Below are positions 1 to 51,772 of a DNA stretch of 64,000 nt, in pieces. The notes below the pieces were generated by a model. That model made no database searches. It was given only the letters and a program-made list of their open reading frames with translations, and was not told the origin of the DNA. The DNA is from Tabrizicola sp. GTDB lineage: Bacteria > Pseudomonadota > Alphaproteobacteria > Rhodobacterales > Rhodobacteraceae. The stretch covers positions 290,151-354,150 of the forward strand of contig NZ_JAUCZH010000002.1 in assembly GCF_030373185.1 (NCBI RefSeq), given 5' to 3'. A program made the position numbers and the translations under genes. Position 1 is the stretch's first letter, and each line of letters opens with the position of its first letter.

Positions 1-1
1 T

Positions 2-391
2 GCGGATGTGGGCGGCGCTTGCCAGTTCCAGACCGCCACCAACGACCGCGCCCTTCAACGCCGCGATGATCGGGACGCCGCCATACTCCATCTTGTTGAA
101 CGCCTCGTGCCAGCGCAGGCACAGGTGCATGAAGTCAGCCGGGCCGCGATCAGCGTCATGGTGTTCCACCAGATCAAGACCGGCGCAGAAATGCGCGCCC
201 TCCGCCGTCAGCACCACAGCCCGGACGCCGGCGCGTGGCACAGCCGAAAACAGCGTCACCAGCGCCTCGACTGTCTCGGCATTCAGGGCATTGCGCTTGG
301 CCGGGCGGCTGAGTGTCACGATCAGCACCCCGTCGTCCTGTTGTTCCAGGGCCAGATTGGGCAGAGTCAGAGTGGCGAGATCGACGGTCAT
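2..391 (-). CDS. dmdD: Methylthioacryloyl-CoA hydratase (crotonase family), 5' part; gene runs off the left edge
   Basis: Not in the ORF track. Manual minus-strand translation from ATG at 391 gives MTVDLATL...RPAKRNAL...[64 protein letters not shown], which closely matches the Ruegeria DmdD sequence as I recall it. Confidence 0.8.
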
Positions 392-415: not shown

Positions 416-1408
416 TCAGGCGTTCAGGTCGATGACGGTGCGACCCTTGATCTGGCCCGCCAGTATCTCTCGGCCCAGACGCGGCAGGTCATCCAGGGTT
501 GCCATGGTGATCATCGCTTCAAGCTTGTCCATTGGCATGTCGGTGGCGACCCGCGCCCAGGCTGCCTGCCGGTTGGCAAAGGGCTGCATCACGCTGTCGA
601 TCCCCAACAGGTTGACCCCCCGCAGCAGGAAGGGGATGACCGTTGCAGGCAGAGCTGCCCCGCCGGCAAGGCCCACGGCGGCGACCGAGGCGCCGTATTT
701 CATCTGGCCCAGAACCCGCGCCAGCATCGCGCCACCGACAGCATCCACGCATCCGGCCCAGGTCTCGGCTTCCAGCGGGCGCTTGACGGTCTCGGCCAGA
801 TCCCCGCGCGGCACAATGCGGGACGCGCCCAGCGATGTCAGGTAACCCTCAGTCTCGGGGCGGCCGGTCACCGCGGCCACCTCGTGTCCCAGATGCGCCA
901 GCATGGCCACGGCCGCCGAGCCGACACCGCCAGCCGCGCCGGTCACCAGAACCGGCCCCTGACCGGGCTTCAGCCCATGCGCTTCAAGTGCCAGAATCGC
1001 CAGCATCGCGGTCAGACCTGCCGTGCCTACGGCCATTGCGGCCCTCGGGGTCAGCGCCGCTGGCAAGGGTACCAGCCAGTCAGCCTTGACCCGCGCCTTC
1101 TGGGCATAGCCACCCCAATACGCCTCGCCCACGCGCCAGCCGGTCAACACGACCTTGTCACCGGGGCTATAGCGCGCGTCGTCGCTGGCCTCCACCGTGC
1201 CGGCAAAGTCGATGCCGGGGACATGCGGATAATTGCGCACCAGCCCACCCCCGGAGCCAAGGCACAGCCCGTCCTTGTAGTTGACGGTGGAATATTCCAC
1301 GCGGACCAGCACCTCGCCCGCGGGCAAGTCCGCTTCGGTCAGTGCCTTGACGGCGGCATGGGTTGTGCCTTCGGGGTCTTTTTCAACGACCAGTGCCTTG
1401 AACGTCAT
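416..1408 (-). CDS. acuI: Acryloyl-CoA reductase (YhdH/AcuI MDR family)
   Basis: Start MTFKALVVEK at 1408 with AAGGAGA RBS; motifs YSTVNYKDGL, PGIDFAG, GTAGLTAML, VTGAAGGVGS, PFLLRGVNLLGIDSV. Confidence 0.9.
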   Translation of the reverse strand: MTFKALVVEKDPEGTTHAAVKALTEADLPAGEVLVRVEYSTVNYKDGLCLGSGGGLVRNYPHVPGIDFAGTVEASDDARYSPGDKVVLTGWRVGEAYWGGYAQKARVKADWLVPLPAALTPRAAMAVGTAGLTAMLAILALEAHGLKPGQGPVLVTGAAGGVGSAAVAMLAHLGHEVAAVTGRPETEGYLTSLGASRIVPRGDLAETVKRPLEAETWAGCVDAVGGAMLARVLGQMKYGASVAAVGLAGGAALPATVIPFLLRGVNLLGIDSVMQPFANRQAAWARVATDMPMDKLEAMITMATLDDLPRLGREILAGQIKGRTVIDLNA

Positions 1409-1428
1409 GTCTTTCTCCTTGACTGTGG

Positions 1429-3045
1429 TCACGCCAAAGGGCCAAGCGCCCGGGCGGTATCCCGCAGGATGAATTTCTGGATCTTGCCGGTAGCCGTTTT
1501 CGGAAGCTCTTGGAACACCACCGATTTCGGCGTCTTGAAGCCCGCGAGATGACTGCGGCAGAAGGCGATCACCTCGGCCTCGGTGGCCCCGGCCCCCTCG
1601 CGCAGTTCGACAAAGGCGCAAGGTGCCTCACCCCAGCGGTCATGCGGACGGGCGACCACGGCGGCAGCCTTGATGGCCGGATGGCGGTAAAGCACTGCCT
1701 CGACCTCGACCGACGAGACGTTTTCACCGCCTGAAATGATCACGTCCTTCAGCCGGTCGCGGATCTGGATATAGCCATCGGGATGCATGACGGCTGCATC
1801 ACCCGACCAGAACCAGCCATCCTGAAACGCCGCCTCGGTCGCCGCGCCATCCTTGTAATAGCCCTTCATCACGGTATTGCCGCGAATGGCGATTTCGCCC
1901 TGCGTCAACCCGTCTGCGGGAACGTCGCGCCCCGTCTCGCGGTCGACAACGCGGATGCCTTCGACCATCGGGAAGGACACGCCCTGCATCGCCTGTTTCG
2001 CGGCCTGCCCGGCAGGGCCAAGGACAGCCCAGTCGTCCTGCCACAGGCATTGCGATATGTGGCCATAGGTTTCGGTCAACCCGTAAACCTGCATCACTTC
2101 CAGCCCAAGGGCCGCCGCCTTTTCCAGCACGGCAGGCGGCGGCGGGGCCCCTGCGGTCATAACCTTGACCTTTGGCGAGAACGCCACGGCACCGGGGCTT
2201 TCGCACAGCATCTGCAATATGACCGGAGCAGCCCCGAGATGCGTCACACCATGGTCGGTCATCGCCCGCAAAAGGGTTTCAGGCGCCATGTCGGCGGCGA
2301 AGATCACATGGCCGCCCACGATCGCCATGGCCCAGGGGTGGTTCCAGCCGTTGCAATGGAACATCGGCACCACCGACAGATAGGTGGGCCGCTGGGGCAA
2401 GGACCAGCCCGCGACCGTACCCATCGCCATCAGGTAGGCCCCGCGGTGATGATAGATCACGCCCTTGGGCCGGCCCGAGGTGCCGGAGGTATAGTTCAGC
2501 GTGATTGCCTGCCATTCATCAGCAGGCAGCACCCAGTCCATTGGTCTTTCCGTCAGCAGATCGTCATAGCTTGTTTCGGCAAACCCCGCTCCCGTACCGA
2601 TGTCGATGCCAATGTCGATGACGGGCAGCGCCCGTCCCAACAGCGCGAAAGCCGCCCGCAGCACGGGCGCAAGCGTCGTGTCGGCGAGGACCAGACGGCA
2701 GTCTGAATGGTCAAGGATATAGGCGATTGTTTCGGGCTCAAGCCGCGTGTTGATGGTGTTCAGAACCGCCCCTGCCAAAGGAACTGCGTAATGCAACTCG
2801 AAAAGCTCTGGCCGGTTCGGTGACAGGACCGAAACGGTATCGCCCGCGCCGATGCCGCGCTTGGCAAGCCCCGCCGCAACAGACCGGACCCGCTCCGCCA
2901 CCTCGGCCCATGTGCGCGTTTTGCCGCCAAAGCTGGTTGCAGGCAGACCGGCATAGACGGTCGAGGCCCTTTGCAGAAAGGACAGCGGCGAAAGGGCGAC
3001 ATGATTTGCCTCGCCCCGGGGGGGTGCCTCGAAATGCGTGCGCAT
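1429..3045 (-). CDS. dmdB: 3-methylmercaptopropionate-CoA ligase, Pelagibacter/DmdB1-type acyl-CoA synthetase
   Basis: AMP-binding motifs YTSGTSGRPKG, YGLTE, SGD, GGEN; family signatures EANHVALSPLSFL and YHHRGAYLMAMG..W...VPMFHCNGW; flanked by acuI and dmdD. Confidence 0.75.
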   Translation of the reverse strand: MRTHFEAPPRGEANHVALSPLSFLQRASTVYAGLPATSFGGKTRTWAEVAERVRSVAAGLAKRGIGAGDTVSVLSPNRPELFELHYAVPLAGAVLNTINTRLEPETIAYILDHSDCRLVLADTTLAPVLRAAFALLGRALPVIDIGIDIGTGAGFAETSYDDLLTERPMDWVLPADEWQAITLNYTSGTSGRPKGVIYHHRGAYLMAMGTVAGWSLPQRPTYLSVVPMFHCNGWNHPWAMAIVGGHVIFAADMAPETLLRAMTDHGVTHLGAAPVILQMLCESPGAVAFSPKVKVMTAGAPPPPAVLEKAAALGLEVMQVYGLTETYGHISQCLWQDDWAVLGPAGQAAKQAMQGVSFPMVEGIRVVDRETGRDVPADGLTQGEIAIRGNTVMKGYYKDGAATEAAFQDGWFWSGDAAVMHPDGYIQIRDRLKDVIISGGENVSSVEVEAVLYRHPAIKAAAVVARPHDRWGEAPCAFVELREGAGATEAEVIAFCRSHLAGFKTPKSVVFQELPKTATGKIQKFILRDTARALGPLA

Positions 3046-3048
3046 GGC

Positions 3049-3672
3049 TCAGGTCGGGCCGTGCCAGTCGATCTGGCAGATCTCGGCCGAACGGCCGTCG
3101 AAGTCCCAGACCCGGCCATGGGCGCGAACCTTGCCCTTGTTGGCGGTGGCAATGGTGATGTCGGGGCCCATCCAGTAACCGGTATTGGTGACCATCACCT
3201 CCTTGTCCGGATCCGGGCCGCCGATCGGTTCGATCTCGCCCTGAATGAACTTGCCCACCATCAGGCGGCGCTTGCGGCCTTCGGTTTCGAAAATGACCGG
3301 CGCGCGCTGCGCTCCCAGAAACTCGGAAACCAGCATCGAGAACAGACCCGTCGTGCCGCGCACCTTGCCCGAGAAGATATCCAGCAAGCCGTCATAGGCC
3401 TTTTCGGACGCCCGCTCATCGATGTAGGCGGCGGCCTTCCAGTTGCCGCGCCCCATGTTGCCCGGAATGTCCAGCACCATGCCGATGTTCAGACCGCCAA
3501 GGTTTTCGCCGTCGAAATGCCCTTCGTCGATGCGCACGCCCATCCAGGCCTGGCAATAGCCCTCGGTCGGGGGGTGCTTGCCCAGCGACACCACGCAGGG
3601 GCAGAACACGGTGCAGTTGCAGTTCAGGATCAGTTCACCTTTGAGGCGCCATTCCGGCAGAGCTTTGGACAT
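3049..3672 (-). CDS. DUF1326 family protein (Cys-rich, putative metal-binding)
   Basis: N-terminal CNCTVFCPC motif plus a further Cys (GYCQAW); about 200 aa; adjacent to DUF2182, its usual partner. Confidence 0.8.
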   Translation of the reverse strand: MSKALPEWRLKGELILNCNCTVFCPCVVSLGKHPPTEGYCQAWMGVRIDEGHFDGENLGGLNIGMVLDIPGNMGRGNWKAAAYIDERASEKAYDGLLDIFSGKVRGTTGLFSMLVSEFLGAQRAPVIFETEGRKRRLMVGKFIQGEIEPIGGPDPDKEVMVTNTGYWMGPDITIATANKGKVRAHGRVWDFDGRSAEICQIDWHGPT

Positions 3673-3675
3673 TCT

Positions 3676-4476
3676 TCATCCTCCCGATGAGAAAACAGAG
3701 ACGACTTGGACTGCTGCGCCGATCAACAGCGCGGCTCCAAGCGGTTTTGTAAGGTAACGCCCGACCTCGGGCAGTTTCTCCAAGACCATGAACAGGGTTG
3801 CGGCACCCATCCACAGAAGGTTCATGGCACCGCCAACAAGCCCCAGAAGCATCAGAAGCCAGCAGCAGCCGACACACCAGACGCCCAGCCGCGCACCCAT
3901 GGCGAGGGCGGGCTTCGTCCCCGGAGCCCAATGCTCCATGAAGAACATCAGGGGGTGTCGGCACTTGGCAAGGCAAGCTTCCTTGGCCGCGCTGAACTGA
4001 TAGGCCCCGGCCCCGGCCAAAAGGCCCGCCGACACCCATGGCGACAGGCTCTGCCCGGCTCCAGTCATCGCGCCAGCCTTGGCAAGCCCCAGTTGCAGGG
4101 CCGACGCCAGGGCGGAAAAAACCAGCCAGACTGCGCCATAACCAATCACCAGCGCCGTCATCGATGCCCCGTCGGTCGCCCGGACCGACCCAAGCTCTCC
4201 AAAGACCCGGACCGCTGGAACGAAAGTCGGCAGCATCATCGCCGCCGACATCAGGCCCCACATGGCGAAAAGCGCCATGGGATCGGCATTTTCGGCCGAG
4301 ATGCACAAGGCCGCCCAATACTCTGCCGCCGTCAGGCCCGGCATCGGCGATGCCGTCATCTGCATCAGGCCAGCCCATCCCAGCAGGATCGCAGCATAAA
4401 AGCCCAACCAGAACAGCCACCGGCCAAGGGAGCCGCGGGGGAAGGTCGCGATCAATGGGGATTGCTCCCGCATCAC
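3676..4476 (-). CDS. DUF2182 predicted metal-binding integral membrane protein
   Basis: Several TM segments; motifs MWGLMSAAMMLP, YQFSAAKEACLAKCRHP, CVGCCWLLM, MNLLWM, EKLP. Confidence 0.85.
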   Translation of the reverse strand: MMREQSPLIATFPRGSLGRWLFWLGFYAAILLGWAGLMQMTASPMPGLTAAEYWAALCISAENADPMALFAMWGLMSAAMMLPTFVPAVRVFGELGSVRATDGASMTALVIGYGAVWLVFSALASALQLGLAKAGAMTGAGQSLSPWVSAGLLAGAGAYQFSAAKEACLAKCRHPLMFFMEHWAPGTKPALAMGARLGVWCVGCCWLLMLLGLVGGAMNLLWMGAATLFMVLEKLPEVGRYLTKPLGAALLIGAAVQVVSVFSSGG

Positions 4477-5576
4477 ACGAACGGAATATCGACGAGCTTG
4501 CCCGCCGTAGGGCCGCCTACGCGGGCTACCGTGACCTCGGTGCCAACGGGAATCGCGGCATCAATCAGCACAAAGCCGATGTTGGCCTTCATCCGCCAGG
4601 ACCAGACGCAGTTCGTCAGCATCCCGATGCGGGTGCCGTTCAGCATGACATCCTCGCGCCGGACGCCCAACGGCGCAGGCAGGTCACCCTCCAGCACGAT
4701 CCCGAGCTGGTGACGTTTGACCCCTTCCGCCTTGATCCGCCGCAAGGCCTGTACGCCGATGGTATCATCGGGGACATGAAGATCGACGTACTTCTCCAGC
4801 CGCACCTCGAAAGGGTTGGTGTCATCATCCGTATCGCCGCCAACGGATACCAACCCGCTTTCCACCCGTTCAGGCGTGGCAGGCGCGCCCGGGCCAATGC
4901 CCCATGGCTGACCCGCTTCCTTGAAAATGTTCCAGAGCTTTGTACCCTTGGAGCCATCCTTGAGGTAAATCTCGAACCCGCCCTGCTTCGACCAGCCTGA
5001 TCGCTGGACGGCGACAGGAATGCCGTCAATCTCGGTTTCCTTGAACCAGAAGTATTTCAGCCCACGCACCCAGGCGCCCAGCACATGCGCCAAGACATCC
5101 TCGGCCTTGGGGCCTTGCAGGGCCATGGGCGACACATCGGGTTCGCAGATCTCGACATTCAGCCCACGCTCGGCGGCGATGGACCTGGCCCAAAGCTCGA
5201 CATCACTGTCGGCGATGGACAGCCAGAACATGTCATCGGCCAGCTTCAAGAGGATGGGATCGTTGAAGATCGTCCCCCGGTGATCGCAGATCGCGACATA
5301 CTTTCCCTGACCGACCTTGCAGGTTGAAAGGTCGCGGACCGCCAGAATCTGCGCCAGCCGGGCCGCGTCCGGACCCTTCAACTGCACTTGCCGCTCGACC
5401 CCCACGTCCCACTGCGACACGCCGTTGATCAGCCGCCAGTATTCTCCTTCGGGATCGCCAAAGGACGTCGGCATGATCATGCGATTGTAGACGTTCGCTG
5501 TTTTCAGCCCCTCCGCAACAGCAGACTCGAAGAACGGGGAAGGTCTGATGCGGGTACTGGGTTGAAATGAAAACAT
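4473..5576 (-). CDS. DmdA-like THF-dependent demethylase (GcvT/aminomethyltransferase family), copy 1
   Basis: Motifs YNRM, WDVGVERQV, NDPIL, EPDVSP, QGP, RSGWSKQGGFEIY, ERVESGL typical of the DmdA branch of the GcvT family; first gene of the operon. Confidence 0.85.
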   Translation of the reverse strand: MFSFQPSTRIRPSPFFESAVAEGLKTANVYNRMIMPTSFGDPEGEYWRLINGVSQWDVGVERQVQLKGPDAARLAQILAVRDLSTCKVGQGKYVAICDHRGTIFNDPILLKLADDMFWLSIADSDVELWARSIAAERGLNVEICEPDVSPMALQGPKAEDVLAHVLGAWVRGLKYFWFKETEIDGIPVAVQRSGWSKQGGFEIYLKDGSKGTKLWNIFKEAGQPWGIGPGAPATPERVESGLVSVGGDTDDDTNPFEVRLEKYVDLHVPDDTIGVQALRRIKAEGVKRHQLGIVLEGDLPAPLGVRREDVMLNGTRIGMLTNCVWSWRMKANIGFVLIDAAIPVGTEVTVARVGGPTAGKLVDIPFV

Positions 5577-5686
5577 GTCTTGCTCCAGGGGTTTGATGCA
5601 CTTGATGCTTTCGGGGGGGCTTGCGTCAAACGACGTTTTCCGGGGTAATGCCCCTACAAAAAGTTATGCGTCTGTTGGGAATAGCC

Positions 5687-6589
5687 ATGAAGTCCGACTT
5701 GCCCCCCCTGACCTGGCTGCGCGCTTTCGAGGCCGCCGCCCGCACGCTCAGCTTCACCAATGCGGGCGCAGAGCTGAACCTGACCCAGGCGGCGGTTTCC
5801 AAGCATGTGAAGGCGCTTGAATTGTACCTGCATCAGCCCCTTTTCATCCGCCGCCCCCGCAGTCTTGAACTGACAAAATTGGGCGAGGCCTATCTGCCCA
5901 AGGTCCAGGACGCGCTGGAACGGCTCGCCACCGGCACGCGCGAGGTGTTTGGACGGCGACGCAGTCAGGTTCTGACCCTGCGCTGTGCGGTGTCCTTCGC
6001 GGTCTACTGGCTGTCGTCGCGGCTGCCCGCCTTTCTGGATGCGTATCCGGATGTTCAGGTCCGGGTGATTTCCAGCGTCTGGAACGACCCGTTCGACAAG
6101 GATGCCTTCGATCTGGATATCCAGTATGGGACCGGCGATTGGCCGGGGTTTTCCCACACTCGCCTGACGCGGGATACGATCACCCCTCTATGCGCCCCGG
6201 GACTTGCCGGGCGGAACGCTTTGCAAAGCCCGGCTGACCTGCGCCATCATCGACTTCTTCATGTGATGGGCTACCAGGAAGGTTGGGGCGTGTGGCTCAA
6301 CGCGGCCGGCGCACGCGGCGTCGATCCCGGTCAGGGCCTGCATCTGGACACGTCGCTGACTGCGTTCCGGATCGCGGCCGACGGGGGCGGCATCGCCCTG
6401 GGGCGCAGTTCGTTGGCAGCTGAAGATCTGGTGGCAGGTCGCCTGATTGCGCCTTTCGCCCTCAAGGTTCCAATCGACGAGGCTTTCTATCTTCTGGAAC
6501 CACAGATCCGACCAGCGCATCCGTTCCGCGATGTGTTCGCCAGTTGGATCAAAGGGCAAGCCTCAGCGCAACTTCCCGGTGTTTCTTGA
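5687..6589 (+). CDS. LysR-family regulator (GcvA-like)
   Basis: Start MKSDLPPLTWLRAFEAAAR; HTH LSFT..ELNLTQAAVS; divergent from the demethylase operon. Confidence 0.9.
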   Translation: MKSDLPPLTWLRAFEAAARTLSFTNAGAELNLTQAAVSKHVKALELYLHQPLFIRRPRSLELTKLGEAYLPKVQDALERLATGTREVFGRRRSQVLTLRCAVSFAVYWLSSRLPAFLDAYPDVQVRVISSVWNDPFDKDAFDLDIQYGTGDWPGFSHTRLTRDTITPLCAPGLAGRNALQSPADLRHHRLLHVMGYQEGWGVWLNAAGARGVDPGQGLHLDTSLTAFRIAADGGGIALGRSSLAAEDLVAGRLIAPFALKVPIDEAFYLLEPQIRPAHPFRDVFASWIKGQASAQLPGVS

Positions 6590-6912: not shown

Positions 6913-7722
6913 TTACCTGAAAGAAGCACGATCAGAATCCGGCGCGAGAACATTCAGTTGTTCAGAAATCTCGCGCACCCGCGCACTGTTGTCGGGCGCA
7001 AGTCGACCATCAAGCATGTGCAGGTTGTTCTCGAAGCCTACCCTTGCCTTGCCGCCTTGCGACAAGGCGTATCTCAGGCAGGCGGTTTCGGCCTGCCCGA
7101 AGGCGCAGACCGCCCAGTCCGGGCGCAGTCCGGCGTTCTGTGCGGCGTCAAGAAAGGGGGCAAGCATCGCGGGATTGGATTGCTGCCCTGAGGAATACCG
7201 CCCCAGCACAAAGAGAACCTGCACGTCACTCACAGGCACCGTGCCGGCAGCGATTTCTGCCGCAAGCGTCCCCACTTGCGTGGCATCGTAGAGGATATGC
7301 TGCACCGCCACACCGGCCTCTGAAAGCGCATGATAGCTGCGCCGCGCCGCCGCCCGGTCGCCATCGGCCAGCATCTCGGCCAAGGCAATCGAGACACCTT
7401 CGGGCGTGATCTCTCGCAAGAGTGCACGTTGCTGGGTCGCAGTGAAGAAACCGGCGGATTCAGTCGTGATCTGCACTGGCATCGCAGGGATTGCCCGCGC
7501 CATTTCTGCAATCAACTCACGGTAAAGCCCCGCATCCAGAACATGCGCTTCGGCTGCATCGCGCACATGGGCGTGGATCGCCCCGGCCCCCATGGCATGG
7601 CAGGCGCGGGCCGTTTCCACGATCTCGGGTATGGTCACCGGCAGAGCCGGGTGATCCGCCTTGCCGCGCCGCGCGCCATTGGGGGCAACCATAATTGTGG
7701 GCAGGGGGCAAAGGCGGCTCAT
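6913..7722 (-). CDS. Beta-keto acid cleavage enzyme (BKACE/DUF849, Kce-like)
   Basis: IMVAPNGAR start motif, Zn ligands in AIHAHVRD and RVGFENN. Confidence 0.9.
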   Translation of the reverse strand: MSRLCPLPTIMVAPNGARRGKADHPALPVTIPEIVETARACHAMGAGAIHAHVRDAAEAHVLDAGLYRELIAEMARAIPAMPVQITTESAGFFTATQQRALLREITPEGVSIALAEMLADGDRAAARRSYHALSEAGVAVQHILYDATQVGTLAAEIAAGTVPVSDVQVLFVLGRYSSGQQSNPAMLAPFLDAAQNAGLRPDWAVCAFGQAETACLRYALSQGGKARVGFENNLHMLDGRLAPDNSARVREISEQLNVLAPDSDRASFR

Positions 7723-9047
7723 GTGGCCAAGGCGCCGTCAATCGCGTGAGACAGCTTGTCCACCAGTTCGCCAATCTGGTCGGGTGAAATGATGAAGGGC
7801 GGGGCAAGCAGGATATGGTCGCCGCGCTGGCCGTCGATTGTTCCACCCATCGGATAGCAGATCAGCCCTGCCTCCATGGCGCGGGTCTTGATCTGCGCGT
7901 ACAGCTTGCGCGCGGGGTCGAACGGTACCTTGGTCTCACGGTCCGCGACCAGTTCGACCCCGCGAAACAGCCCGCGCCCTCGGATATCCCCGACATGGTG
8001 GTGCTGGCCAAATCGGTCGCGCAGGGCCGTGTCCAGCAGCACGCCCATCTCCTGCACCCGCGCGAGCAAGTCCCTGCGATGGATCGCGCGCAGCACCGCC
8101 CCGGCCCCGGCAGCGGCCATGGCGTGCCCCATATAGGTATGACCGTGCTGGAAAAACCCCGACCCTGCCGCAATCGCATCATGGATCGCGCCCGAGGTCA
8201 GCAACGCGCCAATCGGCTGATAGCCCGCGCCCAGCCCCTTGGCCACGGTGATCATGTCGGGGGCCACGCCATCTTCGGTGCAGGCGTAAAGATGCCCTGT
8301 GCGGCCCATGCCACACATCACCTCGTCGAGGATCAGCAAGACGCCGTAACGGTCACATATCTCGCGGATGCGCGGCAAATAGCCGGGAACGGCAGGCACC
8401 GCGCCCATGGTCGCGCCCACCACGGGTTCGGCGACAAAGGCCATCACCGTCTCAGGCCCGAGCCGCAGGATTTCCGATTCCAGCTCATCGGCAACGCGCG
8501 CGCCATAGGCAGGCAGGCTTTCGCCCTCATGCCGGTTGCGGTAGTCGTAGCAGGGCGAGATATGGCTGGTTTCCACCAGAAGCGGCGCGAACTGCGCCCT
8601 CCGCCAGGCATTGCCGCCCGCCGCCAGCGCGCCCAGCGTATTGCCATGATAGCTTTGCCGCCGCGCAATCACCCGGTGCCGCGCGGGCTGGCCGATTTCC
8701 ATGAAATACTGCCGTGCGAGCTTGATTGCCGCCTCGACCGCCTCGGACCCGCCCGAAACCAGATAGACCCGCGAAATGCCTTCCGGCGCGGCGGCGATCA
8801 GCAGGTCGGCAAGGTCTTCGGCGGGATCCGAGGTGAAAAACCCGGTATGGGCAAAGGCCAGCCGGTCCAACTGCGCATGAAGCGCGGCGCGCACGTCCGG
8901 GTCGGAATGGCCCAGACAGGACACCGCCGCCCCGCCCGAGCCGTCGAGATAGCGCTTGCCCGTACTGTCGATCAAATAGCAGCCATCCCCTGCAGCGGCT
9001 GTCGGTAATTGACCCTTGGTGGTGCGCCCGAATACATGCCCCGGCAT
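7719..9047 (-). CDS. Class III PLP-dependent aminotransferase (omega/beta-amino acid type)
   Basis: YLDGSGGAAV, SGGSEA, SYHG, AEPVVG, DEVMCGMGRTG, TVAKGLG (PLP Lys), HGHTY. Confidence 0.9.
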   Translation of the reverse strand: MPGHVFGRTTKGQLPTAAAGDGCYLIDSTGKRYLDGSGGAAVSCLGHSDPDVRAALHAQLDRLAFAHTGFFTSDPAEDLADLLIAAAPEGISRVYLVSGGSEAVEAAIKLARQYFMEIGQPARHRVIARRQSYHGNTLGALAAGGNAWRRAQFAPLLVETSHISPCYDYRNRHEGESLPAYGARVADELESEILRLGPETVMAFVAEPVVGATMGAVPAVPGYLPRIREICDRYGVLLILDEVMCGMGRTGHLYACTEDGVAPDMITVAKGLGAGYQPIGALLTSGAIHDAIAAGSGFFQHGHTYMGHAMAAAGAGAVLRAIHRRDLLARVQEMGVLLDTALRDRFGQHHHVGDIRGRGLFRGVELVADRETKVPFDPARKLYAQIKTRAMEAGLICYPMGGTIDGQRGDHILLAPPFIISPDQIGELVDKLSHAIDGALAT

Positions 9048-9104
9048 TTGGTCCCCCTATCTGTGCCGACCAAAGAGGCACAGGCGCTTTGCCTCGACAA
9101 GCCT

Positions 9105-9911
9105 TCAGCGACTGAATGCGTTGAATACCGTCGGGCCGGACTGCCGGTTATCGATCATTGCCAAAAGAGCATTCGGCAAATCCGGGCTGTCGGGGGCAAA
9201 AAGGCCGCACATCTGCAACGAAGCGCGGACCGAAGCCCGTGGAGGCGTGCGTTCCAGCACCACGCGAACTGCACAGGGCAGGTGTTCGCTGTTTGCAGCC
9301 ACCCCCAGCTTGACCCCGTGCAGCGTACTCCAGCGCTGCGAATAGTCGGGAACGAGGATTGTCTGCGTCAGCTCGATCCCGGCACCAACTTCGTAATCTT
9401 GCAGAAAGACCCGATCTCCCGTCATGACAGAGGCCCCGACATAGCGGTATTGTCGTCTGCTGGGCTGGCCAATCGGTCCGATCCGTTCCAGCCTGCGATA
9501 CGTCATCAGATCGCCCTTCATCTCGAAGCCGAGGAGCGAGCGCAACACCAGGCCAGGGGTGGACATTGAGTAGTAATACTCAAAGAACGTCCCTTCCAGC
9601 TTGCGAATGCGATGATCGCTGAAGCGGATCACGCGGTCCAGGTGGCTGCGCAGGTCACGGGTCGACGTGTCGCTGGCAATCCCGCGCAGGCTGACCAGTT
9701 CCGCGAAATCCTCATGCGGCATCATCAACTCATGGACCTCGACGCCAAAGTAATCCCCGATGCGCCGCATCAGCGGCGCACGCGGGATCGCGGTACCGGC
9801 AAGGTATCGGTTCAACTGGCTTCGATGAATTCCAAGGTCAGACGCGACCATCGAGATCGAGGGTCGATAGCTGCACAGTAGCCGCATGTTCTGGGAAAAG
9901 TCGCGGAGCAT
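9105..9911 (-). CDS. XRE-family HTH regulator with an uncharacterised C-terminal domain
   Basis: N-terminal HTH SISMVASDLGIHRSQLNRYLAG...IGDYFGV. Confidence 0.75.
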   Translation of the reverse strand: MLRDFSQNMRLLCSYRPSISMVASDLGIHRSQLNRYLAGTAIPRAPLMRRIGDYFGVEVHELMMPHEDFAELVSLRGIASDTSTRDLRSHLDRVIRFSDHRIRKLEGTFFEYYYSMSTPGLVLRSLLGFEMKGDLMTYRRLERIGPIGQPSRRQYRYVGASVMTGDRVFLQDYEVGAGIELTQTILVPDYSQRWSTLHGVKLGVAANSEHLPCAVRVVLERTPPRASVRASLQMCGLFAPDSPDLPNALLAMIDNRQSGPTVFNAFSR

Positions 9912-45459: not shown

Positions 45460-46347
45460 TCAAGCCTGACCCTTGGCGACTTCCGCCAGAAGCCAGTCGC
45501 GAAACGGCGTGGCATCTGGGTGGCCAAGACCTTCGTCGGGCGTCAGGATGTAGAAGGACTCCTCCACCGGGACCGAAAGCGTGAAGGGCCGAACCAGACG
45601 TCCCGAGCGCAACTCGGTCGCGGACATTGAAGTCCGGCCCAATGCCACGCCGCCACCATGAGCGGCAACTTCATAAGCCATGAGAGAGGAATCGAAATGC
45701 GCCCCTGATCCGGCATTGATCCTTGTCACCCCGGCCGCCGCGAGCCAGGTCGCCCAGCCTTCCTGATAACCAAGGACATGCAACAGCCGTTCAGCTTCCA
45801 GATCTTCGGGCGAATGAAGTCGCTTTGCGATTTCGGGCGCGCAGAGCGGTTCAAGGCTCTCCCAGCTTACCCGGTCAGCCCGAATGCCCGGCCATTTTCC
45901 GGTTCCATAGCGGATGTCCAGATCGTACCGCTCGGTTTCAGCTTCTTCGGACCAGACAGACGAAACGATCCTGACCGGAATTTGCGGACAGTGATCCATG
46001 AAGGCTGGAAGCCGTTCGGCAATCCAGTTCACCGCCCAACCGATTGGCGCGCGCACGGTCAGGATGCCCTTGCGCCGACCGCCAAAGACTTCGAGCGTTC
46101 CAGCGGACAACCTTTCGAAGGCGTCGTTCACCTTGGGCAGATAGGCAGCTCCGGCTTTGGTGAGTATCAGGCTGCGCGGCAGCCGCTCGAACAGCGGCTC
46201 GCGCAGATAATGCTCCAGAAGTTTGACCTGCTTTGATATGGCCGCCTGCGTCAGGTGGAGCTCGGTGGCGGCGTTCGTGAAACTGAGGTGCCGCGCAGAG
46301 GCCTCGAACGCCCGCAGCCACGGCAGTGGTGGCATCTGATGTCCCAT
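45460..46347 (-). CDS. LysR-family regulator (GcvA-like), paralog of 5687-6589
   Basis: MPPLPWLRAFEASARHLSFT; shared LLHVLGYQEGW motif. Confidence 0.9.
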   Translation of the reverse strand: MGHQMPPLPWLRAFEASARHLSFTNAATELHLTQAAISKQVKLLEHYLREPLFERLPRSLILTKAGAAYLPKVNDAFERLSAGTLEVFGGRRKGILTVRAPIGWAVNWIAERLPAFMDHCPQIPVRIVSSVWSEEAETERYDLDIRYGTGKWPGIRADRVSWESLEPLCAPEIAKRLHSPEDLEAERLLHVLGYQEGWATWLAAAGVTRINAGSGAHFDSSLMAYEVAAHGGGVALGRTSMSATELRSGRLVRPFTLSVPVEESFYILTPDEGLGHPDATPFRDWLLAEVAKGQA

Positions 46348-46511: not shown

Positions 46512-48119
46512 ATGGACCCACGCTTCGACCTGAACATTCGGCAGATCCTGCATGCGCCGGCCGGACGCAATCCTGATCAGGTGATCGTCGATGGAAGCGG
46601 TCAGGCGCGGACCTACCGGATTTTTCACGAACGGATTGCCCGTCTGGCTGCGCTTCTGGTCGGCCAGGGGCTTGGTGAAGGCAAGACCATCGCCGTGATG
46701 GACTGGGACACCTCGCGCTATCTGGAGTGCTTCTTCGCCATTCCGATGGTTGGGGCGACGCTGCACACGGTCAATATCCGACTGGCGCCCGAGCAGATCA
46801 TTTTCACGATCAATCACGCCGAAGATGACGCGATCCTTTGTCATGAGGATTTCCTGCCCATCCTCCTGCCTTTGCTATCCCGGGTCGAGCGGCCGGTGAA
46901 ACTGATCCTTCTTGCCGAAGGCAAGCCTGCGGCTGTGCCAGAGGGATTCATTGGCGAATATGAAACTCTTCTGGCGGAACAGCCGGTCGCTTTCGACTTT
47001 CCTGCCCTGCCCGAGGAGACAAGGGCGACCCTGTTTTACACCACCGGAACAACAGGCGATCCCAAGGGGGTGAGTTACACCCATCGCCAGTTGGTCCTGC
47101 ATACGCTTGCCCTCGCGGCTGACCTTGGCACGGTTCCCGGAAAAGGCGGCCTCAAACGCGATGACGTCTACATGCCGATCACGCCGCTGTTCCACGTCCA
47201 TGGCTGGGGCTTTCCCTATATCGCCACCTTCCTCGGCCTGAAGCAGGTCTATCCCGGCCGCTATGATCCCGCACGGCTGCTGGCTTTGATCCGGGACCAC
47301 GGCGTCACCTTCTCGCATTGCGTGCCGACGATCCTGGCCATGGTCATTGGAGCGCCCGAAGCGGCCGCCACCGACCTGACGGGATGGAAGGTGCTGATCG
47401 GTGGCTCTGCCTTGTCAGAAGGGCTGGCCGGTCAGGCGCGCGCGCATGGCATTGATGTGCATGCGGCCTACGGCATGTCCGAAACCTGCCCCTTCGTCAC
47501 GCATGCCGACATGGTGGCCAGCCAGACCAGCGATGACCTGACCCTCCGCACGGCAACGGGACGGCCGTCGCCCCTGGTCGAGGTTCGTGTGGTGGACCCG
47601 GACATGGCGGATGTCCCGAAGGATGGCGCGACCACTGGCGAGATCGTTGCCCGTGCGCCATGGCTGACCCAAGGCTATCTCAAGAACGTCAGCGCAAGTG
47701 CCGATCTCTGGCAGGGAGGCTGGCTGCATACGGGCGATGTCGGGCATCTGTCCCCGGATGGCACCTTGCGCATCACCGACCGGCTGAAGGACGTGATCAA
47801 GTCGGGCGGCGAATGGGTATCTTCTCTGACCCTTGAAAACCTTGCCTCCACCGTGCCGGGCCTGATCGAGGTCGCCGCCGTCGGGGTTCCAGACTCTCGC
47901 TGGGGCGAACGGCCGGTCCTTGTGGCGGTGATGGAGCCGTCAGATTCCGTCGGGACCGCCATCCGGCAAAAGATCAGCGCGGCAATCGAACGGGGCGAGT
48001 TGCCAAAATGGGCCAACCCGGACCGGATCTGTCGGGTTGCCGCCCTGCCCCGTACCTCGGTCGGAAAGATCGACAAGAAACGTATTCGCCAGATGCTGGA
48101 AAGCGGAGAAATCGCCTGA
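46512..48119 (+). CDS. Medium/long-chain fatty acid-CoA ligase (AlkK/DmdB2-related)
   Basis: [46 protein letters not shown]. Confidence 0.88.
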
Positions 48120-49303: not shown

Positions 49304-49499
49304 GGCACGGCATGACGAAATCGGGGCCTTAGCGTGAAAACCGGTTGTTTGAACTTCTGGTCAATGCTGGCCAACGTAGGGTCATGCAGACCGGGGGTCG
49401 GCCTGCAATCCCTGTCAGTTGATCTGGCACACCTTCCTGCCGATTGGGTGCCAATCCAGTCGGCAGGGGTTTTCAACAAGGCAAGCAAGGAAAAGGCAG

Positions 49500-50549
49500 A
49501 TGAAGTACGAAAGGATCACACCCACGTCGATCATTGCTGCGTTCCTCGCCATCCTCGGGACGCCGCTAATTGCCGAAACGCCCAGCGAAGGGTGCGGCAA
49601 GGCCGTTCCAGCGAGCGGCGCCTTCCAGTTGCCCGACGGGGAACAGACCCGGACCTGGCGGCTCCATGTTCCTGCCGGGGTCGACGCGGCCCAGCCTGCG
49701 CCGCTGGCGCTAATCTTCCATGGCTGGGGCGAGGATGAGAATGCGTTTCTAGATGTACCCGTCGTCACCGCCGAAGCCGACCTGAAGGGTTTTTACCTGG
49801 CAGCGGCGCGCGGGGTCGGATCGGAAGGCGGTGATGAAAGTTACAACTCCTGGACCTTCAGCGGCTCGGCCACCGGCATCGGTGGCGACGGTCAGCCCAT
49901 CTGCTCGGGCGCCGAGACGAACTATTCCTACAAGTCATGCGGCCCGTTGGGTGAAGGCGTGGCCCAGAACGGCTGTTCCTGGACCCAATGCCAGACCGAT
50001 GATGCGGCCTTTGTAAGCACCCTGATCGCCGAGATCGGCAAGTCGGCCTGCATCGACCTTGACCGGGTTTTCATGGCTGGCGGCTCGAATGGCGGGATGT
50101 TCACCTGGGACATGGGTCAAACCCCGGCCGTTGCCAGCCAACTTCGTGCCATCGCGCCGCTGATCGGGCTGCCGCATCGCGGCTTTCTGGAAGGACCCGG
50201 TCGGCCCGATGGGCTGCCGGTGCTGCTCATTACCGGCGTGGACGATCCGACCGTTCCGCCTGGCACATGGGACGAGACCGGGTTCACAACCACCGCTGAC
50301 ACGGATCTCTACCACTACACCGGTGCCGGGGCGATCACCGATGTCTGGGCTAATGCGCAGGGCTGCACCGCCGAGTTGGCGAAGGTCGACTTCGGGGCAG
50401 AAGGCATCGAATGCCGCTCTTCTTGCGCACCGGACGGGTCGGGGCTGCCACCTGTTCTCGATTGCCGGGCGAACATGGCACATGACTACGACCTGGAAAA
50501 AACCTGGCCGATGATCCTGGATTTCTTCGCAAACCAGCCCCCCCGCTGA
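49500..50549 (+). CDS. Exported esterase, LpqC/PHB-depolymerase-like
   Basis: Signal peptide; FHGWG, DDAAFV, GGSNGG nucleophile, DPTVP, C-terminal His (MAHDY); Cys-rich. Confidence 0.75.
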   Translation: MKYERITPTSIIAAFLAILGTPLIAETPSEGCGKAVPASGAFQLPDGEQTRTWRLHVPAGVDAAQPAPLALIFHGWGEDENAFLDVPVVTAEADLKGFYLAAARGVGSEGGDESYNSWTFSGSATGIGGDGQPICSGAETNYSYKSCGPLGEGVAQNGCSWTQCQTDDAAFVSTLIAEIGKSACIDLDRVFMAGGSNGGMFTWDMGQTPAVASQLRAIAPLIGLPHRGFLEGPGRPDGLPVLLITGVDDPTVPPGTWDETGFTTTADTDLYHYTGAGAITDVWANAQGCTAELAKVDFGAEGIECRSSCAPDGSGLPPVLDCRANMAHDYDLEKTWPMILDFFANQPPR

Positions 50550-50572: not shown

Positions 50573-51676
50573 TTGTACGGCATCACGCCCTCTGCCCGCC
50601 TGCGGCCGTCGCCCTTCTACGAGGCGACGGTTCGCGAAGGGGTCACCAACTTTACCACCTACAACCACATGCTGATGCCAACCGCCTTCGGCAACCCTGA
50701 AGCCGAATACTGGCGCTTGATCAACGGAGTCAGCCAATGGGACGTTGCGGTGGAACGCCAGGTCCAGTTGAAAGGCCCCGACGCAGGCAGGCTGGCGCAG
50801 ATCCTCGCCCCCCGCGATCTGGCGAAACAGAAGGTCGGGCAAGGGAAATACGTTCCGCTCTGCAATCATCAAGGCATTCTCATCAACGATCCGATCTGCC
50901 TGAAGCTGGCCGACGACCTGTATTGGCTGTCGATTGCTGACAGCAACATCTGGTTCTGGGCCGGGGCCATCGCCGCAGAGCGGGGTCTGCGCGTCGAGGT
51001 CAGCGAACCCGATGTCTCGCCCATGGCCATCCAAGGACCGAAGGCCGAGGACGTCGTTGCCCATGTCTGTGGCGACTGGGTGCGTGACGTGAAGTACTTC
51101 TGGTTCCGCGAGACGGACATCAACGGCATCCCCGTTGTAGTGCAGCGATCCGGCTGGTCGAAACAGGGCGGGTTCGAGATCTACCTGCGCGACGGGACCA
51201 AGGGCGCCCGGCTCTGGAACATCTTCCGCGAGGCTGGCCAGCCCTGGGGCATCGGCCCGGGCGGACCCAACTGGTGCGAACGGGTCGAGTCGGGGTTGAT
51301 TTCCTATGGCGGGGACACAGACGCCACCACGAACCCGTTCGAGGTTCGGATGGGCAAGTTTGTCGATCTGCATGTGCCAGATGACACCATCGGCATCCAG
51401 GCCTTGCGCGTAGTGGCCACCGAAAGGCCCAAGCGGCATTCGCTGGGGGTTGTTCTGGATGCAGGCGACCCGGTGGCGCCAGGCTTTCATTGGAACCCGG
51501 TTTTCATGGACGGAAAGAAGGTTGGCTGCATGACCAACTGCATCTTTTCCTACCGGATGAAGAAGAACATCGGGTTTGCCCTGATCGATGCCGACTGCGC
51601 CATCGGGGACCGGGTCGAAACCCGGGTCAGCGGTGCGATGCAGCCCGGCGAGCTGACCGACCTACCCTTCCTGTGA
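50573..51676 (+). CDS. DmdA-like THF-dependent demethylase (GcvT family), copy 2
   Basis: TTG start with GGAG RBS; YNHM, WDVAVERQV, EPDVSP, RSGWSKQGGFEIY, PNWCERVESGLISYG. Confidence 0.85.
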   Translation: MYGITPSARLRPSPFYEATVREGVTNFTTYNHMLMPTAFGNPEAEYWRLINGVSQWDVAVERQVQLKGPDAGRLAQILAPRDLAKQKVGQGKYVPLCNHQGILINDPICLKLADDLYWLSIADSNIWFWAGAIAAERGLRVEVSEPDVSPMAIQGPKAEDVVAHVCGDWVRDVKYFWFRETDINGIPVVVQRSGWSKQGGFEIYLRDGTKGARLWNIFREAGQPWGIGPGGPNWCERVESGLISYGGDTDATTNPFEVRMGKFVDLHVPDDTIGIQALRVVATERPKRHSLGVVLDAGDPVAPGFHWNPVFMDGKKVGCMTNCIFSYRMKKNIGFALIDADCAIGDRVETRVSGAMQPGELTDLPFL

Positions 51677-51772
51677 AATCATGAATGACTTCATGCGCAA
51701 TCCCCGTGACCTGCCCCCCGGAAGTTCCCTCAGTCTGATGTAGAGTCTGCCCAACCTGAGGGAGCAGACGAC

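Follow-up and report, generated by a model that had tools for sequence, protein, structure and literature searches.

LysR-linked DmdA-like genes of Tabrizicola sp. lie outside the canonical DmdA clade and are predicted to encode DMSP-type demethylases

Two DmdA-like genes in one genome

A stretch of 64,000 nucleotides of Tabrizicola sp. (NCBI RefSeq assembly GCF_030373185.1, contig NZ_JAUCZH010000002.1, positions 290,151 to 354,150 of the forward strand; hereafter the window) contains two paralogous genes related to dmdA, the gene for the tetrahydrofolate (THF)-dependent demethylase of dimethylsulfoniopropionate (DMSP). They are referred to here as copy 1 and copy 2, and the clades to which they belong as c1 and c2. 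Unless a contig of the genome is named, coordinates are those of the window.

4473-5576, minus strand: copy 1, predicted DmdA-like THF-dependent demethylase with GCV_T and GCV_T_C domains, clade c1; motifs YNRM, ADSD, APATPER and SVGGD
50573-51676, plus strand: copy 2, predicted DmdA-like demethylase, clade c2; motifs YNHM, ADSN, GPNWCER and SYGGD

Each open reading frame (ORF) encodes 367 amino acids, with an ATG start in copy 1 and a TTG start in copy 2. The two proteins align from end to end with zero gaps and are identical at 241 of 367 positions (66%; BLASTP, E = 0), and they share the blocks EYWRLINGVSQWDV (residues 45-58), QRSGWSKQGGFEIYL (191-205) and VDLHVPDDTIG (264-274). A preliminary description of the window had already reported two paralogs with these blocks and four motif differences, all of which are present. 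The Pfam domains GCV_T (PF01571) and GCV_T_C (PF08669) are found above the gathering score in both, with 125.3 and 33.4 bits in copy 1 and 128.9 and 47.0 bits in copy 2.

The closest match of both copies in the PDB is the Pelagibacter DmdA 3tfh (E 6e-72). An AlphaFold2 model of copy 1 superimposes on that structure with a template modelling (TM) score of 0.92; its mean predicted local distance difference test (pLDDT) value is 81.7, and the loop at residues 244-249, which holds the SVGGD motif, is its lowest-confidence stretch. N105-D106, W195, E202, Y204, R237, E239 and D248 are invariant in both copies and in their clades. W197, E204 and Y206 of the Pelagibacter enzyme are DMSP and folate residues (PMC7487153). 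Together, the TM score and these invariant residues point to a fold of the GcvT type in which the folate and catalytic residues are retained.

Placement relative to canonical DmdA

Membership of the DmdA class was judged with the NCBIfam equivalog NF009133, whose curated whole-protein cut-off is 410 bits. Over 301 genomes of the same family this model gives a bimodal distribution of scores: a gene scoring 460-704 bits is present in 133 genomes, and a separate class that includes the present genes lies at 350-398 bits. Identity to the Pelagibacter DmdA is 35.5-36.7% for copies 1 and 2 and a third paralogue of this genome, and 42-48% for canonical Rhodobacteraceae DmdAs. The copies are also not GcvT proper, since they reach 103.6 and 110.6 bits with TIGR00528, the cut-off of which is 235.85 bits.

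The main tree was calculated with IQ-TREE from 93 sequences, and a quicker second tree agrees with it. The canonical clade, for which PDB 3tfh and the NCBIfam cut-off served as anchors, contains the Pelagibacter enzyme and those Rhodobacteraceae genes that score above the cut-off, and has a support of 100/100. Copies 1 and 2 do not cluster with characterised DmdA and fall inside a separate clade of 54 sequences (support 100/97). The node that joins this clade to the canonical one is moderately supported (93/45), so that "neighbouring clade" is safer wording than "sister clade". Taken from the tree and the model scores, non-canonical status for both copies is supported, in agreement with the preliminary description, which had placed both outside canonical DmdA.

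The third paralogue (contig C6:48017-49258) scores 374.8 bits with the DmdA model, is 47% identical to copy 1 and branches further out than both clades. Its surroundings (C6:47445-52198; locus L011 7445-12198) include an AsnC regulator, a GcvT-like gene, an OsmC-like gene, an enoyl-CoA hydratase and an AMP-ligase. Genes of this type, which belong to neither clade, are found freely alongside canonical DmdA in other genomes.

Motif differences between the copies

The copies contrast at four motifs: YNRM/YNHM (residues 30-33), ADSDVELW/ADSNIWFW (122-129), GAPATPER/GGPNWCER (230-237) and SVGGD/SYGGD (244-248), each given as copy 1/copy 2. Thirty Rhodobacteraceae DmdAs above the NCBIfam cut-off carry GCPN(L/G/A)IER and SYGND, which is nearly what the preliminary description gives for canonical Ruegeria DmdA (CPNNIER and SYGND), and the Pelagibacter DmdA 3tfh carries GCPNLIER and SYGND. 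Copy 1 has neither the GCPN-x-IER nor the SYGND motif; copy 2 retains only the PN and the Y.

The four contrasts had been proposed as a sign of different substrates; this idea is not supported, and only part of the contrast is informative. Position 32 is split in the canonical DmdAs (16 YNRM vs 14 YNHM) and is Q, N, S, G or K in other members, while residues 126-128 read VEL, IWF, IWL or MWL within copy 1's own clade. Because such variation occurs inside every clade, including canonical DmdA, His/Arg32 and residues 126-128 (the DVELW/NIWFW contrast) were dropped as specificity markers. The changes N233A/Y245V in c1 and D125N in c2, by contrast, define their clades. An unbiased scan, restricted to positions with 90% or more conservation within canonical clade A, within c1 (n = 121) and within c2 (n = 121), returned only L34I and N233A as c1-specific and only D125N and L260M as c2-specific; 51 further positions, N247G among them, are common to c1 and c2 and distinguish both from canonical clade A. 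At position 245, canonical DmdA has Y, c2 has F or Y, and c1 has V in 120 of 120 sequences, all of which read SVGGD.

The absence of the Asn and the Tyr, first remarked for copy 1, thus holds across its clade, and it reaches further: all 22 c1-broad members, including those of marine Planktomarina and Ahrensia, have A, T or M in place of Asn233 together with V or C in place of an aromatic residue at 245. The remainder of the 54-sequence clade retains N233 plus Y, F or W at 245. An outer, unrelated sequence, rep_P0258, has the same paired loss (T with C), and these two events hint, without amounting to proof, that residues 233 and 245 act together. Both N233A/Y245V, in the clade of copy 1, and D125N, in that of copy 2, are real changes specific to their lineages, and they fall in the most conserved motifs of the family. 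They probably tune binding or kinetics and do not switch the pathway.

The differing motifs seem to match GARDxLRLEAG and LYGxE/D, the best-conserved signatures of T-proteins; this match to the E. coli sequence serves as a lead only. The residues named for trimethylamine N-oxide (TMAO) demethylase, F582, F672, R480 and K782, map to F178 and about K262 here and not to these motifs.

The operon of copy 1

Copy 1 heads a group of minus-strand genes that runs to the left edge of the window and beyond it, with a regulator gene diverging on the other side.

5621-6589, plus strand: GcvA-type LysR regulator, divergent from copy 1 (NCBIfam PRK11139, 272.7 bits)
3676-4476, minus strand: DmdE-like membrane protein (DUF2182/PpoB2; Pfam PF09948, 196.7 bits), the start of which overlaps the copy 1 stop by 4 bp
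3049-3672, minus strand: DmdF-like protein (DUF1326; Pfam PF07040, 183 bits)
1429-3045, minus strand: acyl-CoA ligase of the PRK08162 type (NCBIfam, 750 bits), candidate methylmercaptopropionate (MMPA)-CoA ligase
416-1420, minus strand: AcuI, acryloyl-CoA reductase (PDB 5gxe/5gxf AcuI, E 1.7e-166)
1-391, minus strand: DmdD, methylthioacryloyl-CoA hydratase of the crotonase family, N-terminal 130 codons; the gene continues past the left window edge (contig C2:289735-290541)

Over 261 residues, the full-length DmdD shares about 73% identity with the solved enzyme of Ruegeria pomeroyi (PDB 4izb; E 2.3e-127), and the next PDB match scores 220 bits, which makes it a close orthologue. AcuI is 70-81% identical to the acuI products adjoining canonical dmdA in the family sample. 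A ligase, acuI and dmdD had been described around copy 1 as a dmdB-acuI-dmdD operon; this proved right, at the level of orthologues for AcuI and DmdD. The adjacent DUF2182 and DUF1326 genes are likewise orthologous to the pairs that flank dmdA: the DmdE-like protein is 45-65% identical to counterparts beside canonical dmdA in the family sample, and the DmdF-like protein is 57-78% identical to the DUF1326 products beside canonical dmdA in 24 loci. Copy 1 is therefore associated with four genes of DMSP demethylation loci (DmdD, AcuI, DmdE and DmdF). Since DmdE, DmdF and AcuI are orthologous to those of canonical dmdA loci, the accessory genes are the usual ones, and only the demethylase and the regulator differ. 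Orthologues of the ligase are found beside c1 genes of Mesorhizobium, Thioclava and others (69-86% identity) and beside canonical dmdA in loci L033 and L040 (62-63%). The solved DmdB 6ihk was considered as its orthologue and ruled out as too distant (261 bits).

Related genes also occur elsewhere in the genome. A second AcuI gene lies outside the window at C2:161462-162457 (73% identical to the operon AcuI), and two DmdC-like acyl-CoA dehydrogenases are encoded at C5:36137-37705 and C8:118302-119846, with 41-43% identity to the gene of a Mesorhizobium operon described below.

The cassette of copy 2

Copy 2 stands at the end of a separate plus-strand gene group with its own divergent regulator, and an insertion sequence follows.

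45460-46347, minus strand: another LysR regulator of the GcvA type, transcribed divergently from the copy 2 cassette; 91% identical to the Alitabrizicola equivalent
46512-48119, plus strand: acyl-CoA ligase 2, PRK06187 type; 78% identical in L087 and L078, 64% in L048
48120-49303, plus strand: thiolase (acetyl-CoA C-acyltransferase); start approximate, listed ORF from 48008
49419-50549, plus strand: esterase-like protein of 376 amino acids, with a weak polyhydroxyalkanoate-depolymerase-type match only; 69-77% identical in L078 and L087
51773-52962, plus strand: IS3-family insertion sequence (NCBIfam transpos_IS3, 247.8 bits)

Synteny with Alitabrizicola and with a Rhodobacterales metagenome-assembled genome (MAG) ends at 51694, 18 bp past the copy 2 stop codon, and the IS3 element begins 97 bp past the same codon. 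In Alitabrizicola rongguiensis, which has no other DmdA-like gene in its genome, the cluster reads LysR, ligase, thiolase, esterase-like gene and c2, and then runs on to dmdE-dmdF-acuI-dmdD. The IS3 element therefore sits where a formerly longer cluster, or an acquired cassette, was broken.

Genomic context and distribution of relatives

The neighbourhoods of related genes were counted at 87 loci from named genomes, and only loci with at least 3 kb on both sides were included. Neighbours of dmd type (LysR, CoA ligase, DmdC-like dehydrogenase or DmdD) occur at 16 of 17 c1-core loci, and an orthologous divergent LysR gene at 13 of the 17. Mesorhizobium erdmanii has a LysR gene divergent from c1-ligase-DmdC-like dehydrogenase-DmdD; this dehydrogenase scores 448 bits to PDB 6ijc, and its DmdD matches 4izb with E 1.7e-135. 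In Thioclava the order is LysR / c1-ligase-DmdD, in Roseobacter sp. HKCCA0882 it is LysR / c1-DmdE-DmdF-ligase, and a c1 locus in a Paracoccaceae MAG has a comparable layout. For c2 the arrangements are LysR / c2-DmdD and LysR / ligase-c2-x-DmdE-DmdF-AcuI. Linkage to DmdD, DmdEF and AcuI recurs in Alphaproteobacteria and in other Proteobacteria. From sequence comparison, the object is a LysR-linked DmdA relative in authentic dmd operons, widespread outside the sea. A literature search found no work on this clade in Mesorhizobium or freshwater taxa.

Within the family of the window, about 17 genomes have a c1- or c2-like gene, and canonical DmdA accompanies it in only one of these, compared with 133 of 301 genomes (44%) overall. 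This near-exclusion fits functional replacement. Strict mutual exclusion was considered as well and ruled out: both types occur in 1 of about 17 carriers in the family sample, but the pattern breaks down among marine carriers, with both types in 6 of 16 carriers taken from named loci. The only other genome of the genus in our collection, G256, has none of the three DmdA-like genes; the presence of these clusters thus differs within the genus, a pattern consistent with horizontal gain or recent loss.

Other surroundings within the wider clade are illustrated by two loci. In Planktomarina locus L094 (3134-10862), from a genome that also has canonical DmdA, a c1-broad gene with a divergent LysR is flanked by hydantoinase A/B genes on one side and a GMC oxidoreductase on the other, and dmd genes are absent from its surroundings. 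In the Hyphomicrobiaceae MAG locus L046 (2350-4894), a lone c1 gene is located about 3 kb from a corrinoid methyl-transfer pair, namely an MttB-family methyltransferase and a B12-binding protein.

Proposed function and alternatives

Both copies stand among genuine DMSP-breakdown genes, and they therefore probably do the job of DmdA and not two different jobs. We lean towards the reading that both are LysR-linked demethylases of the DMSP type, outside canonical DmdA, which yield MMPA; the substrate is what we infer. Each enzyme would move one methyl group from DMSP, or from a very close sulfonium analogue, onto THF and release MMPA. The adjacent CoA ligase would activate MMPA, a DmdC-like dehydrogenase encoded elsewhere in the genome would oxidise the activated form, and the DmdD at the end of the copy 1 operon would carry out the final step. 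DmdE/DmdF and AcuI may play the same part as in the dmdA operons of marine Roseobacter. Copy 1 would serve as the resident demethylase in a complete operon under LysR control (dmdA-like, dmdE, dmdF, ligase, acuI, dmdD), and copy 2 part of a separate cassette (LysR, ligase, thiolase, esterase-like, demethylase) presumably cut off by the IS3 element. DmdD is a high-affinity specialist for methylthioacryloyl-CoA (MTA-CoA), with a Km of 8 uM (PMC6850173). A module of a regulator and a divergent demethylase-DmdD pair is sensible if the demethylase supplies MMPA, and only demethylation of DMSP does this in one step, which argues that both clades, and c1 above all, are of the DMSP type.

Several observations weigh against this reading. 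Copy 1 (349.9 bits) and copy 2 (367.0 bits) both miss the NF009133 cut-off, and their relatives are labelled by the NCBI annotation pipeline PGAP only as glycine-cleavage-T-domain proteins. The operon ligase scores 311 bits with the NCBIfam DmdB model (cut-off 822 bits) and is thus not of the DmdB type. The c1 clade has replaced an Asn and an aromatic residue that canonical DmdA and the remainder of the neighbouring clade retain, and the copy 2 cassette contains a thiolase and an esterase-like gene that are superfluous for DMSP catabolism. Outside the c1 core, most loci have no dmd neighbours, which are present at 1 of 8 deep c1-broad, 6 of 23 c2-broad and 1 of 13 third-group loci. Beyond the family sample, 6 of 16 carriers possess canonical DmdA too, namely two Planktomarina, Pseudahrensia, SAR116, Roseibium and a Paracoccaceae MAG, so that the two types are not simply interchangeable; the neighbouring-clade genes of these six are without dmd neighbours, and some divergence of role within the wider clade is possible. 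Lastly, R. pomeroyi has a non-functional DmdA-like protein, SPO1648. We think it more probable that SPO1648 belongs with the type of the third paralogue than with c1 or c2, because that type co-occurs freely with canonical DmdA.

The alternative that survives best is that the paralogues are subfunctionalised, one acting on DMSP and the other on another onium compound, the demethylated form of which would still lead to MMPA-CoA. We regard it as unlikely, and the same holds for an example of it in which a longer-chain sulfonium such as gonyol is handled by the ligase, thiolase and esterase-like enzymes of copy 2. Both copies are intact in this genome, as they are in G229, in each clade a conserved motif carries a fixed change peculiar to that clade (N233A/Y245V and D125N), the thiolase and esterase-like genes are conserved in three genomes, and marine carriers retain a neighbouring-clade gene beside canonical DmdA. 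Across genomes, however, c1 and c2 share both the minimal LysR / demethylase-DmdD module and the dmdEF-acuI setting, Alitabrizicola has c2 alone with dmdEF-acuI-dmdD, and no transporter or enzyme specific to another substrate was identified.

It is considerably less probable that the clade acts on no sulfonium at all, with an N-methyl betaine such as beta-alanine betaine as substrate or with an inactive or regulatory role, and that its dmd linkage is incidental. Such a reading would account for the scores under the DmdA equivalog cut-off, for the many carriers from soil or fresh water, where DMSP is scarce, for the majority of c2-broad and third-group loci that are without dmd context, and for the c1 locus near MttB and B12-binding genes. 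The catalytic and folate residues are nevertheless conserved, short terminal branches indicate purifying selection, and the recurrent linkage to DmdD, DmdEF and AcuI across proteobacterial groups speaks against coincidence. Enzymes of this fold are not known to methylate THF directly from quaternary amines.

The proposal made in the preliminary description, that copy 1 acts on a neutral thioether (MMPA to 3-mercaptopropionate), starts from the loss of Asn233 and Tyr245 and gains a little from the fact that MMPA demethylation is a known process for which no enzyme is known; it is very improbable, because removal of the methyl group from MMPA would starve DmdC and DmdD, both of which require an intact methylthio group, and it is c1 that has the tightest link to MMPA-consuming genes (the 16 of 17 loci above), with DmdD orthologues and DmdC-like genes directly downstream. 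The identical residue losses run through the clade with the most DMSP-like context of all. Moreover, methyl transfer from a thioether to THF is thermodynamically uphill, and methionine synthase runs in the opposite direction.

Comparison with known systems

DmdA of R. pomeroyi (SPO1913) and of Pelagibacter ubique (SAR11_0246; PDB 3tfh/3tfi/3tfj) has the three-domain GcvT fold and the length of about 367 amino acids in common with both copies, as well as the N-D, W/Y-S-K-Q-G-G-F-E-I-Y and E-R-x-E motifs and the operon partners dmdE, dmdF and acuI. Both copies differ from it by GGD in place of GND; copy 1 has also lost Asn from CPN and Tyr from SYG, and in copy 2 the ADSD motif reads ADSN. At the level of the locus, a divergent GcvA-type LysR gene is found here in place of the GntR-type DmdR, and DmdD and a ligase are part of the operon. 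In R. pomeroyi, by comparison, dmdB-dmdC-dmdD does not adjoin dmdA, and the ligase of the present operon belongs to another AMP-ligase subfamily than the solved DmdB; DmdD is common to both systems, and the Mesorhizobium c1 operon adds the DmdC-like dehydrogenase.

The DUF2182/DUF1326 pair was named DmdE/DmdF in 2026 and is required for growth of Ruegeria lacuscaerulensis on DMSP via demethylation, and DmdF of this organism has peroxidase activity (PMC12992908). Its dmdE-dmdF-dinB-dmdA-acuI operon and that of copy 1 have in common orthologous DmdE, DmdF and AcuI together with a DmdA-type gene; the copy 1 operon differs by its LysR regulator, its non-canonical demethylase and the presence of DmdD and a ligase, and dinB was not identified in it. 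Rhodobacterales dmdEF genes have been stated to be always near dmdR with bona fide dmdA and/or acuI (PMC12992908). The window at 3049-6589 departs from this rule, and so do L045, L048 and L050, each with a LysR of the GcvA type as the divergent regulator.

The glycine cleavage system's T protein, GcvT, has the same Pfam domains and the same folate-binding fold. Against its cut-off of 236 bits the copies score 104-111, neither gcvH nor gcvP lies near them, and the genome encodes its own GcvT elsewhere (L005).

Implications for surveys of DMSP demethylation

Counts of DMSP demethylators, and of the sulfur they divert from dimethylsulfide, depend on the recognition of dmdA. If the clade does demethylate DMSP, the pathway would be uncounted in many non-marine bacteria, since their genes fall below the DmdA model and are annotated as glycine-cleavage-T-domain proteins. 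Such carriers would include Mesorhizobium, Aminobacter, Thioclava, Tabrizicola-like freshwater Rhodobacteraceae, Steroidobacteraceae, Rhodoferax and Acidimicrobiia. Marine Planktomarina and SAR116 would then have a second demethylase, and the DmdE/DmdF/AcuI module would not be bound to the DmdR regulator. Several cultured strains hold a single copy, which makes the question directly testable.

A broader and tentative suggestion is that c1 and c2 form an unrecognised second family of DMSP-type demethylases, which may be the only one that many Alpha-, Beta- and Gammaproteobacteria from fresh water, soil and the rhizosphere, and also Acidimicrobiia, possess and which dmdA surveys and annotation have missed. 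The c1 lineage, with its rebuilt Asn/Tyr pair, may bind differently or may prefer another natural sulfonium, the product of which would still enter DmdB/DmdC/DmdD.

Genes beside the copy 1 regulator

Next to the LysR gene of copy 1, the minus strand at 6913-9911 encodes a beta-keto acid cleavage enzyme of the BKACE family, a class III aminotransferase (PRK07483, 779 bits) and an HTH/XRE regulator. These genes appear to form a unit separate from the copy 1 operon.

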